Shown here: one piece after another, positions 7,172-14,800 of the stretch
Numbering within the stretch: position 1 is the stretch's first letter
Layout: each line of letters starts with the position of its first letter
NCBI GenBank assembly: GCA_963575745.1
Contig: CAUYUJ010000008.1
Span: 62,001-119,635, forward strand
Direction: 5' to 3'
Length of the DNA stretch: 57,635 nt
DNA from: Prorocentrum cordatum
Lineage: Eukaryota
Program-made: the position numbers and the translations under genes
The notes under the pieces: generated by a model
Told to the model about the DNA's origin: nothing
Database searches by the model: none
Seen by the model: only the letters and a program-made list of their open reading frames with translations

Positions 7172-8386
7172 CTCTCCGAGGCTTCGTTCCTTAACCCCTC
7201 ACTCCCCCTCTCGGGGATCAAGGACTGAGGTTTTCGCACATGTCGGCCCATGCTGGGCCCCCAGAAGCCTTCGGAGTCCTCTGGGGGGTTCTATAGGACA
7301 TATAAGCCTTTGCCACAGCAATCTAAGGGGGTGGATTCCCCGACGTGCCTCGGGGCGGCCTCGGGGGGGATTACCTGGGCGAAAGACCCAACCATATGCA
7401 GTTGTGAATCCGCCGATGGCACTTACGTCCGGGCCCTCAGGGACACGCACGGCCGGGACGCCTTCTGGGCGACGAAACAGTACCACGACACGTTCGGCCA
7501 GTTGGAGCCTCAGTTGGTTCTTCTTCCTGTGCTTCTTCTCGTTGCTCCACGGTGCCAACGGCATGAAGCCAAGGACGATGGTTGGCTTTCACGCGCTTGC
7601 CAGCTTACAGTCACCAATTTTGCGATGTTTCACTGTGTGCTTGATTTCGACGGGGAGTTCGATTACGAGCATGATTATTATGTTATGGGGTGCGATTCTC
7701 ATCAGTCTGGGGCTCATATTCTGGTGGGTACGCGTACGCTTACAGCATCAAGGTGCTGAGTTTCACCGCCCTTTCGACTCTTCCTTGCTATGTACCAGAT
7801 TGATGAGTAATGAGACCATCATTTTGGCTTCACGCCGAGCTGGTACTTCTAGGTGCCGTGTACCTCGTGGGCGAAGGGTTCACGTCTTACATGTTCATCG
7901 TTGTCAACCGGGAGATGTTCAACAGATTCTCGAAGCTATTCTTCGTCTCTGTCTTCGTGCCTGCTGCCGCCCATGGCGCTGGCGAATGGCGAGCACCACC
8001 GCGAAGGCTACCGAGCCGTCCCGCACTCCAGCTGCGGGAGGGTTTGGGCCCCTGCTGCGAGGCGGCGGCGGGGACGCCCAGCAGACTCGGAAGCACAAGG
8101 CCCAAGAGAAAGCGTTGCTCGCGGGCCTCCAGGAGCTGCTCTCCAAGTTCGCCTCGCAGCCGGCAGAGCGCCCTCCTGCCCGGGCATCCCCGCCCAACAC
8201 CGCCGCCAAGCAGCAGAATGCCAAGGCCAAGCGCCGCGAGGCCAAACGCCAGGCATTCCACTCCGAAGGCCTCATCGGAGCCATCAAGCGCATCACCCAG
8301 CGCGCGGAGGCAACCGGTGACACCAAGCCGCTCGTCGGCAAGCTCAAGTCGGTCGCCCAGGCCGCTGTCGACGGCCGCTTCGATAA

Positions 8387-8553
8387 TGACTACCTACCAG
8401 ACCACCCCAACCCAACCCGAAGGCCCGAATTTCGGGTTGGGGGGGGTAAGGGTTCCATACGTGTTTTTTCGAGCTTTCCCGACCCCCCCCAACTGGAAAT
8501 CGAAGGTAAATCTGAACCTTCGGGTTGGGTTGGGGTGGTTTGGTGGGTGGTGA
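8387..8553. mobile_element. 167-bp MITE with ~36-bp imperfect TIRs and 5-bp TSD (GATAA)
   Basis: TGACTACCTACCAGACCACCCCAACCCAACCCGAAGG ... CCTTCGGGTTGGGTTGGGGTGGTTTGGTGGGTGGTGA. GATAA at 8382-8386 and 8554-8558. Excision restores the LINE reading frame (GRFD-K-AAAA). Confidence 0.92.
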
Positions 8554-10368: not shown

Positions 10369-11821
10369 GAACCGAGTTCAGACCCTACACACATTGCTGC
10401 ACGACGCGAGCATGTGGCATCGATTGCCGAATGCTTCCGAATGGTTACGTCGTCGCCTACGGTTTCCCCACGCGAATGGAAGTTCAAGGGCGGCGGCCGC
10501 AGTACGCAGTCGGTGGCGGGAACACTGCGCAGTGGCCGTTCTTCCTCGGCCAAAACTTCGGCGGCTTCCAGTCCTTCTTCACCGGCCAGAACGTTGGGGA
10601 GGGGTGCTGGGGTGGACTCGGCAGGCGGCGCCGGGTCTGACCATGGAGGCACCTATCGCCTGGGGGGCGCTTCTGCAGCCAGAACTCTGGCAGCATCTCG
10701 TTCTTCCAATGCACCGAGCAGAATCCCTTCGGCCAGAACGCTTGCGGCGGCCAGTTCGGCCCCGCAGACCCTGCGTGCCCGCCCGGCAGCGGCTCCCTCA
10801 CGGGCGGCCTCGGTTTCGGGCGCCTGGGGAACAATACCAGTTTCTAAACGGCACGCCCCCATTCTTGCGAGAGAGCTGATCAAGCAGAATAAGCTTGCAG
10901 CATCATCTTTTTCATCATCATATTCTGCACGCAAACGTCCAGCAGCTGCTGCGACGAAGACGTGGGATCCAGCTACCGAGGCTCGCGCTGCGCGTCTCCG
11001 CCTGGCTGCCCAAGGATTGCCTTAGCTATGTTCGCCTACGTTGTCATCCACCGGGGTGTCCTGCCAACGCTGCTCACGCACTGCATCTACACCTTCGTCT
11101 ATGGCGCAGCCCGGGCGTTTCTGCGCGAACGCCCCCTGTCGTTCGCGCGCCTCTCCGCCGACTACGCCAGAGCGCATGGTCACCTTCATGTCTTTGGCAT
11201 TGATGCGACGATACTCTTCGGCGTCTTCTCCACAGACCCACAGTGCTCCAGTGGATCGTGCGCGGGAGTTGCAAATTCGGCTTTGCACAGATAGTTGGAG
11301 GGGTTGAAAGTGCTCACTCTGCACATGCAGCATCCCGGATCAGGTTACAGACCGCGCGACCGCTCGTCGCCAACATCTGCTCAGCCATGGGGCTGCAGGC
11401 AGAGAAATCCTTTCCGCCCGCAAGGGCCAGGTCAAGCAAATCGCCAAGGACCCGATCGTCACCGCGAGACGCTTTGCTACGCGTCGTGCTGACCGTCACG
11501 CCATGGCCACGCCCATCATTTCTCAGCTTCCTCCTCGGGCCTGCCGCCTGCAGTCCAGGGAGGGCGATACTTACGGCTTCGAGTGCTCGACGTGCGGCTG
11601 GTACACGCCGTCTCTGCAGTTCGCGCGCTCCGACCTCCTCTGCAGCGGCGCCCCGGAGGACGCCCAGCAGGCCGCCTCCGAGATGTCAAGAGCACAGCGG
11701 GTGGCCACTATCTCCGACATCGCCACTGTCGCCAAGCAGCAGCGCCAGGAACAGGCGTCGCAGCGCAAGCGCGAACGCCGCCGCCTCCTGGCCAAGATGC
11801 ACCGTCAGACCCTTGTCTGCT

Positions 11822-14800
11822 AAGGGCCCCCGGGACCTCGGGCTCCTGACCTACAACATCGGGAGCTACACCAAACGTCGAGTGAGACTTCTTTCGCTAC
11901 TCGCTGCGCATGCTCCTCACCTCCTCACCTCTGCTTTCTCCAAGAATGTGCCCTTCCTCACGGTCAGCGGCGCATGCTACGCGCTGATCTACATGCTGTT
12001 GGCTATACTTTGTTTGTCGGCCGGGATGGCTTGCGCGCCATCGTGCGGGGCGGGCGCAACGTCGCCCCCATCGCCGCCCCCCTGCGGACGCCGACTTCCG
12101 AGTGCAACGGCTCGCCACGCAGGTGGGGCAGGCCCGCCTTTTGATACATCATCGGCACGCCCACTCGGGCTCAGCCTCCGAGAGGGCGCGCTTCGACTCG
12201 CAAGTTTTTCGTGACCCCGCACGCCTTACAATTGACGTGGGGGATTTCAACGAGCTCCCAACCTTCGATCTGGAAGACCACCTGGTACCAGCTTTCCCGG
12301 GAGAGCATACTTATTGTCTTGATGCAGCGGATCGCGGCCGCAATGCTTCAACGATCGACGGCGTCGTTTTTTCTCCGACCTTGATGGCGGCGGCGACTGC
12401 TATTGCACTGCCGCGCGTGGAGTCCTCACAACACCGACCTGTCCTTATTCAGGCTGCCATGACCCCCGAGTTTCACGATGCTCTACGTTGGTCCGTGGAC
12501 GAGCCGATCGAGTGTGGAGCGTGGACCCCCGAGGCCAAGCACCAGTTCGACGTGGACATCGTCACCGACATCGACAAGGCATGGGCCACCTGGGCCACTG
12601 CCGCCGGCGCGCCCGACTCCCGGATACTGCGCCAGAGGGCCGGCGGCGGCTGGGCTGCCGGGCCGCGCGCCCAGGAGGTCCACAACGTGTGGAAGAAGGC
12701 TCGTCGTGAACTCCATCGCAGCGATCACGACGCTGCCGGGCACACCATCGGCACGATCACCAGCATCATCGACGACGCCACGAGCCAGCGCCTCCACTCA
12801 TGGAGGCAGCGGGTCGCCACACGAGGCGGCGTGGCCAGGTGGGTCAAACAACGACTTAATGATCTGCGGGAAGCTGTTCTGCCTGCTTTTGGCTCAGAGA
12901 CTATGTCGCCACGGGAATTGGCACGTAGACTCAGCACTTCGTTGGCCAAGCGTTGGAATACTGGCGTATTTCAGTTATCTCATCTGCCTGGAATGCGTGT
13001 CGATGTTGTACGTTCTCCACTGGATCACGCCCTTCTTCGACAACATGTCCCACCACCAGCCCCTCTTCAACGACATCCTTTTGATTTGTCCATCTTGCCA
13101 GATGTGCCTGTTTTTCGCGCTCCGGGGCCGTGGCAGGCGGAGCACGCCATCGCACTCCTCCCCGATGGCGCGAGCGGGATCGACGGGCATGCTGTTAAGT
13201 GGATCGAACATCTTCATCAAGACTCTCTGGAGCGGCTTGTGCAGGTGCTCACCGCTGCTGACCAGGGCCGCTTGCCGCACTTATGGAGCATGGCTCGCGT
13301 GACCCTTATCCCCAAAGGTCCGGAGGCGCCGCCTGACGAGCGCAGGCCACTCAGCGCACTACCCGCAACGTATCGGCTTTGGGCCCAGCGACACGCAGCA
13401 GCCTTAACTACCTGGCTGATGACTTGGAAGCCGGACGGCCTCGTGGGAGCGGCGCCGCACCATTCCTGCCCGGATGTTCTATGGGAGTTGCAAGCTCATC
13501 TCGCTCAAGCTCGTCTTGGTCGAATACCTCCTGCGTTTGTTCTATCTATGGATTTAGAAAATGCTATGACCGACTTGATATTCCCAATCTTCTGCGGCTC
13601 ACAGAGCATCTTGGGCTACCGATCTGCGGCCACGTGCTTCGCAACTACCAGACGCTCGAGCGCATCCTCTTCGTGGACAACCAGCCCACGGACGTCCTCC
13701 TCAAGGGCTCCGGGTTGCCGGGCGTCCCCCAGGGTTGCCCGATGGCCTGCTTCTTATGCAACTTGACGTCCATCATGTGGCATTTGACGGTGTCCCCAGC
13801 GGTACCGACAGCCAAGCACTTTTCCTACCTGGACGACCGGTTTGTCCTTGTTGCGTCCTAGAACGAATTGGCTCGAGTACTTGAGGCTACTCAACACGTT
13901 GATTTGGCCATTGGTCCTGATCTTAATCGACCTAAGTGCGCTCGAGGCGTCGTCGTCCCTGTGGGTCGCAGTGTCCCCAAGTGTGCTGAGCAGAGTCTTC
14001 GAGACATACCTCCATGCAAGCATTTTCGGTATTTGGGTATCGATTTAGTCTTGGGCGAAACGTCTGCTGCTCCAGTGGCCGGCCGCCGTACTCACCAGCT
14101 TCGCAAACGGCTACATGTCGCTCGTGTACTACCTTACGTTCAACGAGGCGCGGCGGTCGCAGATGCCCTGTCAGCGGTGTGGTGCGACGGGGTTATGCCT
14201 ATACTGCACGTGATCTTCGTCAAGCGTGTTCTTGTGCAGCTCTTGCTCTTATGGACAATATTCCCGAGGGACGTACTATTCGCCGGTCGAGAGAGCTTAC
14301 TCATCTTCTTGGGCCTGGTTGTCACAGGACTCACTTGGGGTGTGTGGTTATCGACAGCGTTGTTCGGCTGTTCTATCGTGTGATCTTGGCTGGGATTCTT
14401 CAACCAGCCGACTGGCAGTTTTTATGGGCTCACCGCAGTCGGATACGTTTGGGGCCCCTTACGCTTCTTTCGCGGGCGTGCTCGACCCTCCAGATTGATT
14501 GGCACTCAGCTACCGCTTTCAAGGCTGGGAGTCGCAGGTTCGCCTTCACCATCCGTCCAGACCTTCATGCAGATGCCGGCCGGGACGCTTTTCCAGGTCT
14601 TTGCAAACGGGTTCAAGTGCAATCACAGCTTCATAAACTACGAGATTTTCTTCGGTTTGCCCTCGCTGGAAGCGAAGCGAGGCGGAGGTCCAAAGACTTT
14701 GGCGGCTTGTCCAACGGCCTCACCGAGAACCGAAACGCACGGGAGCATCTTTATGCTGCTCAACTACACTTCGGAAGTCCTGCCCTCACCTCCGCTGGCT

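Follow-up and report, generated by a model that had tools for sequence, protein, structure and literature searches.

The window analyzed here, a stretch of 57,635 nucleotides from Prorocentrum cordatum (GenBank assembly GCA_963575745.1, contig CAUYUJ010000008.1, positions 62,001 to 119,635 of the forward strand), contains the first open reading frame (ORF1) of a degraded dinoflagellate-type long interspersed nuclear element (LINE), the ORF2 of which encodes an APE-like part, a reverse transcriptase (RT), and an RNase H, and which lacks a poly-A tail. ORF1 encodes an OTU cysteine protease domain and two short motifs that resemble the LRGG tail of ubiquitin, one behind a hydrophobic leader (site 1) and one behind the OTU domain (site 2). 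The best-supported reading of these sequences, to which we give somewhat better than an even chance because the two xxGG sites are positionally conserved, is that the ORF1 protein (ORF1p) is processed by its own OTU at these ubiquitin-tail mimics. The strongest single argument comes from a comparison of two lineages of relatives, in which the place of a 2A-like separator in one appears to carry the postprotease motif in the other. The larger proposition, of a LINE lineage with a true polyprotein ORF1 matured by a captured protease of the deubiquitinase (DUB) type at ubiquitin-tail mimics, in one subfamily of which a cut site replaced the 2A separator of its sisters residue for residue, falls a little short of an even chance in our estimation.

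An OTU protease domain belongs to the LINE family

The open frame at 9658-11025 matches the Pfam OTU family (PF02338) with an E-value of 2.5e-10 (41.4 bits over a cut-off of 23.3) in the profile search that an earlier, sequence-only reading of this DNA had proposed. Every catalytic residue named in that reading is in place on the + strand in frame 1: the Asp codon is at 10012-10014, the Cys codon at 10021-10023 within a KDGACAWH sequence, and the GHY codons at 10351-10359. A phmmer search retrieves OTUD3 (4bou) at E 7e-4 and, more weakly, the arterivirus protease PLP2 (8eho) at E 0.0067. The AlphaFold2 (AF2) model of 9937-10560, computed with 31 relatives, has a mean predicted local distance difference test (pLDDT) score of 86.3, with residues 11-170 confidently modeled and residues 171-208 forming a disordered tail. 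Foldseek matches this model to OTUD3 (E 3.6e-9; template modeling score of 0.79 on the target) and then to OTUD1, DUBA, yeast Otu2, and the nairovirus OTUs. The OTU domain is genuine as judged by sequence profile and predicted fold, and with the catalytic residues conserved among the aligned relatives (Cys in 105/105, His in 110/115, and Asp in 77/103), the protease looks active across the family.

Relatives were collected with a HMMER scan of 1.84 billion representative proteins, using the 455-residue OTU frame as query, which gave 164 matches at E ≤ 1e-3; of these, 47 reach E ≤ 1e-10, and 11 reach E ≤ 1e-30. Five of these proteins, P0002 (1466 aa), P0004, P0015, P0025, and P0146, are collinear with window positions 7635-11814 in tblastn alignments, with residues 1-909 of P0002 falling on 7635-10506 and residues 1077-1339 of P0004 on 11014-11814. 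The C-termini of P0002, P0004, and P0025 coincide with the window stop at 11823, so 7416-11823 constitutes an ORF1 distinct from ORF2. The ORF1 of intact relatives spans ≈1,240-1,470 residues and follows a common order: a hydrophobic leader, [LM]RGG(G), basic helices, two RRM-like domains, the OTU, a second [LM]RGG(G), a Ser-rich linker, and a Cys/His-rich C-terminal part. Pfam analysis of 51 relatives (21 + 30) finds the OTU alone in nearly all; P0103 combines OTU, Exo_endo_phos, and RVT_1, and P0068 combines OTU and Exo_endo_phos, a linkage between OTU and ORF2 domains that is known in the relatives from predicted proteins. On the strength of the 164 matching proteins, the five collinear ORF1s, and these two fusions, the OTU is a part of the element family, as the earlier reading had supposed, and no chance neighbor. 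A scan of metagenome contigs with a single protein yielded 95 pattern matches and no relatives, and a homologue search with P0002 as query returned P0002 itself only; with the OTU region as query, it returned no match under its settings for longer or for near lengths.

A ubiquitin-tail-like motif is conserved behind the OTU domain

FKGGG of site 2 corresponds to residues 183-187 of the OTU model, where pLDDT is 51-58, ≈15 residues past the end of the fold. Conservation at this place was assessed among 115 relatives aligned over the catalytic His, 77 of which have the His and at least 65 residues after it. An [RK]GG sequence occurs at +15 to +65 from the His in 40 of these 77 proteins, with a median offset of 37, and a looser form ([RK]GG, GGG, or [RK][AS]GG) in 55; by comparison, [RK]GG is found in 23/732 (3.1%) of the other 50-residue windows of the same proteins, and in 1000 shuffles of the site-2 segments, 5.4 of the 77 have it on average and at most 13. 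The residues that flank the motif are also biased. The position ahead of the R is L, M, I, or V in 24 of 40 (background 0.19), and the position that follows GG is G, A, or S in 33 of 40 (background 0.27), with one [RK]GG per segment in 38/40 and two in the other 2. An unselected alignment of 78 rows (the 77 proteins and the window) has a top-residue share of at least 90% at the catalytic His; the L-R-G-G-G columns fall in the 30, 70, 70, 90, and 70% deciles, respectively, and most linker columns at or below the 20% decile. The site-2 pattern is that of a ubiquitin tail, L-R-G-G and then a small residue, and it plainly forms a conserved island in a variable, disordered linker.

The sequence-only reading had placed LRGG(GG) at 8055, FKGG(G) at 10483-10494, and RLGG at 10657-10668; all three are present at these coordinates, the first in frame 0 and the other two in frame 1. 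Its view that such motifs lie at domain boundaries is borne out in the AF2 models for FKGGG, past the OTU fold, and for LRGGG, after the leader, and positional conservation, which it had left to be examined, extends to these two places and not to the third. RLGG was rejected as a site, with [RK]GG at +75 to +130 in 2/63 relatives, or 3/63 when LGG is counted, which is the background level. The linker behind site 2 contains short motifs repeated three to five times, xTLRx or ARTLAA in the window, TLRS, SLRP, or YAPTL in the relatives, and HTVWT or TVWT in the sister group introduced below.

A sister group has a 2A-like motif at the place of site 1

An xGG sequence is found at the aligned place of site 1 in all five relatives that reach the N-terminus, as LRGG in P0002, P0004, and P0146, MRGG in P0015, and LWGG in P0025. 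A diverged contig from the sequencing run X1 has 19 listed changes over 7935-8087, and the sole change in the LRGG codons is synonymous. In a sister group of six proteins (P0068, P0133, P0140, P0072, P0115, and P0066), the place of site 1, near the N-terminus, is occupied instead by R[IV]GEA[ST][NH]PGP. In an independent MAFFT alignment, IGSxLRGGG shares its columns with RIGEASNPGP or RVGEASHPGP of these proteins, and behind both motifs come a basic stretch and a Leu-rich helix. The 2A consensus, quoted as D(V/I)ExNPGP in the portion of the literature available to us, resembles the sister-group motif. There is no NPGP in the forward frames of the element; the only one, at 17052, lies past the 3′ repeats, where the limit of the element is uncertain. 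The place that appears to hold a separator in one lineage holds LRGG in the other, which is therefore the same motif there as at site 2, and we interpret this as an apparent exchange of a 2A-like NPGP for LRGG at one site in the aligned sequences.

Two side observations concern these motifs. Three of the proteins with a 2A-like motif have HPGP in place of NPGP, and P0072 carries the motif twice. In P0015, site 1 reads MRGG and site 2 LRGG, and the extreme C-terminus carries RIGEASNPGP.

Models of the leader and of the middle region of ORF1

An AF2 model of P0146, computed from a 24-row alignment, has a mean pLDDT of 68 and reads, from the N-terminus, as a low-confidence leader that includes LRGGG, helices, a folded block (residues 210-570, pLDDT ≈90), a disordered linker, and the OTU. 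LRGGG lies in a low-confidence stretch directly ahead of the helix formed by residues 81-103. In the window and in four of the five subfamily relatives, Kyte-Doolittle 19-mers with values of at least 1.6 occur solely ahead of site 1, and none lies behind it. VIA-align matches two parts of the P0146 model, residues 330-424 and 480-565, mostly to RRM domains, with a best Z of 7.8, a level that may reflect no more than a common arrangement; Foldseek with the same model gives no match at E ≤ 0.001, and a Pfam scan of the middle region finds no match. The VIA-align matches are suggestive of two RRM-like domains in the middle of ORF1.

Proposed processing of ORF1p and the alternatives

We propose that the OTU would recognize two ubiquitin-tail mimics (P4-P1 = L/M-R-G-G, with a small P1′ residue) and cut ORF1p at both. 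Site 2 would be cut in cis just behind the OTU, and site 1, behind the leader, in cis or in trans. These cuts would free a membrane-seeking leader and part a module with the RNA-binding domains and the OTU from a zinc-finger module, and the same enzyme could double as a deubiquitinase. That the OTU cuts peptide bonds at the motifs is inferred, as are the functions given to the pieces.

Several observations weigh against self-processing. The support for cleavage lies at the level of sequence and models, and the relatives are predicted gene models that may not all be intact. The conservation of site 1 is based on five relatives; at site 2, neither the strict nor the loose motif is found in 22 of the 77 proteins, the window copy itself reads FKGG and not LRGG, and the p-value of the enrichment over the control windows (Fisher p = 4e-30) overstates independence, as the relatives share descent. 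In the AF2 model, the tail that carries site 2 is disordered and outside the active-site cleft. In addition, the closest folds, OTUD3, OTUD1, DUBA, and Otu2, are cellular isopeptidases, and according to the available part of a review of OTU enzymes (PMC3968130), most human OTUs, the nairovirus OTUs, and the PRO protease of turnip yellow mosaic virus do not cut linear ubiquitin chains, and the OTU of Crimean-Congo hemorrhagic fever virus performs no autoproteolysis.

Some of these points recur in the proposal that the OTU is a deubiquitinase only, acting on the element's own proteins or ribonucleoprotein particles, on host restriction targets, or on ribosomes stalled at 2A-like sites, with [LM]RGG as an uncut pseudo-substrate, an autoinhibitory tail, or a docking site. 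We consider this unlikely, although with an appreciable share of the probability. The nearest folds are indeed cellular DUBs and include the ribosome-bound Otu2, 2A-like motifs are present in the relatives, OTU and Josephin DUBs on LINE ORF2p have been tied to the relief of 2A-induced stalling in the accessible text of a preprint (PMC13405545), and most OTUs, by the partial source cited above (PMC3968130), do not cut linear bonds after Gly-Gly. What a deubiquitinase alone leaves unexplained is the presence of the motif exactly at two domain boundaries, the location of site 1 in the columns of the sister group's 2A-like motif, and the small P1′ residue in 33/40 proteins; the two activities are moreover compatible, as PLP2 and PRO are described in the same portion of PMC3968130 as doing both.

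A lower probability still, low enough for us to call it improbable, attaches to the idea that the RGG or GGG islands are unrelated to the protease and represent an RNA-binding or arginine-methylation motif, a glycine hinge, or, in the case of site 1, the decayed remnant of a 2A-like motif, either uncut or cut by a host enzyme. LINE ORF1 proteins bind RNA and the middle domains here are RRM-like, the motifs lie in disordered low-complexity linkers, and site 1 is positionally homologous to the 2A-like motif. RGG boxes, however, occur in clusters, and here the motif is single in 38/40; the residue ahead of the R is aliphatic or Met in 24/40, as in the ubiquitin tail, and two places have converged on one five-residue pattern beside an enzyme whose natural ligand ends in LRGG. 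Finally, that the OTU is a host gene or an unrelated neighbor which came to lie upstream of the LINE by chance is very improbable. The OTU is ≈1.5 kb from the start of ORF2 in the window, and the frames are broken, as a chance neighbor would allow; the whole upstream unit is nevertheless collinear with five relatives and sits inside one insertion in a satellite array, and the OTU is fused to APE or RT domains in P0103 and P0068 and, in P0026, to a DNA methyltransferase (DNMT) like that of the published SymbioLINE ORF1.

Relation to known systems

Self-processing of ORF1p would find its closest functional parallel in arterivirus PLP2 and tymovirus PRO, OTU-like enzymes that cleave polyproteins in cis and in trans and also deubiquitinate, as described in the part of PMC3968130 available to us. 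From what that source covers, the likeness lies in an OTU-fold protease inside a multidomain precursor and in candidate ubiquitin-tail-like sites at domain borders, with the cis site just downstream, features that the window shares at the sequence level only. The host of the domain differs, being a retrotransposon ORF1 followed by RT and RNase H and not an RNA-virus replicase, and the window OTU is nearer to the cellular OTUD1/3/5 than to the viral OTUs. By analogy, the window OTU may work like PLP2 and PRO, but it is no member of that group.

In architecture, the element resembles SymbioLINE and SymbioLINE-Dnmt of Symbiodinium (de Mendoza et al. 2018, PMC5890265), which, as far as the accessible sections describe, have two ORFs, an ORF2 of Exo_endo_phos-RVT_1-RNase_H organization, no poly-A, and a long ORF1 with captured domains. 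Unlike SymbioLINE-Dnmt, the window has no DNA_methylase match in the ORF1 pieces scanned (all but 11026-11307). An OTU is not mentioned in the main text or in three supplementary files of PMC5890265. One relative, P0026 (2026 aa), has an OTU, then GGG, and then a C5 DNA methylase domain (E 9.8e-17). This methylase is the hallmark of the published SymbioLINE-Dnmt ORF1 type, which by the layout of P0026 probably carries an OTU too. The 2026 preprint cited above (PMC13405545) describes, in its accessible text, one ORF2p of Symbiodinium necroappetens with an N-terminal OTU and a 2A-like peptide, which matches the architecture of P0103 and P0068. It is a single case given in passing, with the DUB tied to ribosome stalling, and the same text says nothing about LRGG sites, about self-processing, or about how ORF1 is organized.

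OTU capture is also known from DNA transposons, namely Ginger1 and Helentrons (PMC2836005 and PMC4067079, in the parts available), and the viral OTU in the polinton-type pPolB is thought, in the available portion of PMC12721341, to cut the terminal protein off the polymerase. These cases share with the window the repeated acquisition of OTU proteases by mobile elements; they belong to other element classes, and the accessible parts of these reports describe no ubiquitin-tail-like flanking motifs. The 2A-like StopGo sequences of APE-type non-LTR (long terminal repeat) retrotransposons are a further point of comparison, as a separator behind the N-terminal leader of the first ORF, which the sister group has; the window subfamily, in contrast, has LRGGGG in those columns and no NPGP in the element, so separation at site 1 would need a protease. 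In the literature searched, outside of which lie many subscription papers and preprint supplements, we found no account of this ORF1 architecture, of conserved LRGG sites, of an exchange of 2A for LRGG, or of LINE self-processing.

Non-LTR retrotransposons, unlike LTR elements and retroviruses, are not known to have their own protease. If our reading is true, a LINE family whose ORF1 is matured by a captured OTU would make this distinction less sharp. It would be the first non-LTR retrotransposon with a protease for self-processing, with a cellular-type OTU cutting peptide bonds at LRGG, a convergence with the strategies of arteri-, tymo-, and coronaviruses, and a natural exchange of one mechanism of protein separation for another, unrelated one. 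The 2A-like and LRGG members of the pair are directly testable natural constructs. LINEs are frequent in Symbiodinium genomes, according to the sections of PMC5890265 available to us, and an OTU could bear on LINE escape from ubiquitin-dependent control. The combination of [LM]RGG(G) and an OTU may also serve as a simple annotation marker for long, otherwise unannotated ORF1s.

Organization and lesions of the window copy

The element appears in the window as a chain of long open frames on the + strand, from ≈7.4 to 15.9 kb, with several frame switches (Table 1). The leader, site 1, the middle region, and the OTU do belong to one reconstructed ORF, as the sequence-only reading had it, and several repairs are needed to restore it. 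Specifically, an insert at 8387-8553 interrupts the frame, which also shifts near 9423 and again near 9786. Stop codons interrupt it at 11023-11025 and 11305-11307, within sequence that aligns to P0004. ORF2 is frame-broken as well, with a stop at 13859-13861. The window copy is dead and cannot itself be active.

Table 1. Features of the LINE copy in the window (coordinates in window positions)
Feature	Coordinates	Strand	Basis and remarks
Inserted LINE copy (5′ untranslated region [UTR], ORF1, ORF2, 3′ UTR)	approx. 6444..17125	+	3′ limit uncertain, perhaps about 16510
ORF1 (broken)	7416..11823	+	tblastn of relatives; first in-frame ATG 7416; stop codon 11821-11823
Hydrophobic leader	7416..8054	+	Kyte-Doolittle 19-mers
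Site 1, LRGGGG, ubiquitin-tail mimic, candidate cleavage site	8055..8072	+	Frame 0; aligned relatives
Palindromic repeat of ~166 nt, like a miniature inverted-repeat transposable element (MITE), inserted in ORF1, foreign to the LINE family	8387..8553		Self-reverse-complement match; inverted arms ~35-38 nt
Conserved middle region, two candidate RRM-like (ferredoxin-like) domains	8737..9785	+	Frame change near 9423; collinear with P0002, P0004, P0015, P0025, P0146
OTU cysteine protease domain	9967..10446	+	Pfam, phmmer, AF2/Foldseek; catalytic residues D 10012, C 10021, H 10354
Site 2, FKGGG, candidate cis-cleavage site	10483..10497	+	43 residues after catalytic His; AF2 disordered tail
Ser/Ala-rich linker, repeated xTLRx motifs	10498..11013	+	Includes nonconserved RLGG 10657-10668
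ORF1 C-terminal Cys/His-rich part, zinc-finger-like in relatives	11014..11823	+	P0004 residues 1077-1339 align
ORF2 N-terminal part, APE-like	11831..12701	+	Frame 2 then frame 0; motifs LTYNIGS, GDFN, SQHRP by eye
Reverse transcriptase	13101..14383	+	Frames 0 and 2; in-frame stop 13859-13861; GVPQG, YLDD motifs
RNase H	15202..15921	+	RNase_H E 2e-5
89-bp tandem repeats, ~4 copies, 83% matches	16035..16508	+	Directly after RNase H, probably 3′ UTR

The 8387-8553 repeat falls in a gap of the P0002 alignment and may be the source of the change from frame 0 to frame 1 between 8384 and 8737. Its word depth in X1 is 12,600-25,700, compared with 3-17 in the flanking bins, and depth in the thousands, up to ≈25,700, is found in the Logan contigs of two runs; a depth in the thousands beside flanks at 3-17 identifies the repeat as a very high-copy element of the source organism. 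A related contig is one base shorter at 9785, and the lesion at 9786 is therefore specific to the window copy. The possibility that the frame changes are introns was rejected in view of the absence of base 9785 from this contig, the two in-frame stops inside aligned sequence, and the high-copy nature of the 8387-8553 repeat. In the C-terminal part of ORF1, CxxC…HxxxH patterns are evident by eye in the relatives, and a Pfam scan of this part of the window returns no match.

In this subfamily, ORF2 is separate from ORF1 and overlaps it. A frame open from 11204 onward runs into the APE-like part and overlaps the last ≈600 nt of ORF1, to 11823, which is read in another frame. The earlier suggestion that the OTU forms one polyprotein with APE, RT, and RNase H consequently does not hold here, as ORF1 stops at 11823. 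The APE-like part has no Pfam match and no match to PDB sequences, including a phmmer search of PDB with the ORF2 pieces; its identity derives from motifs read by eye and from position, with Exo_endo_phos of P0103 (E 5.3e-7) at the same relative place. RVT_1 matches the frame-broken RT piece at E 1.9e-4 with 21.6 bits, under the cut-off of 29.6, and BLASTP aligns the start of the RT to the RVT_1 region of P0103 at E 3e-5. The RNase_H profile gives 25.2 bits, just under its cut-off of 25.8.

Genomic setting and the remainder of the window

The LINE copy is a single insertion of ≈10.7 kb that breaks a satellite higher-order repeat. The flanks, 5631-6434 on the left and the sequence from 17126/17191 on the right, are consecutive parts of one higher-order repeat, which consists of three to five copies of an 83-bp satellite and a (TCC)n run with a period of ≈900 bp and resumes at 18081-19800; the insertion point is at or in the (TCC)n run. 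A poly-A tail was looked for in the LINE copy and none was seen, and a self-BLAST of the element against the window revealed no second copy or long repeat. X1 contains many diverged contigs that are 80-99% alike to the element, 825 of which were placed. The copy has the character of an interspersed, multi-copy insertion without LTRs.

The window overall is GC-rich eukaryotic DNA. It opens with a 5.5-kb (ATC)n microsatellite at 1-5578, with ≈1860 copies and 76% matches. On the − strand, the region 22000-28300 (66% GC) contains two long open frames, one of 557 aa (23936-25606) and one of 657 aa (26310-28280), neither with a Pfam match, and an open frame at 50305-52890 (862 aa), also on the − strand, matches Pfam DUF6829 with an E-value of 8.7e-27.

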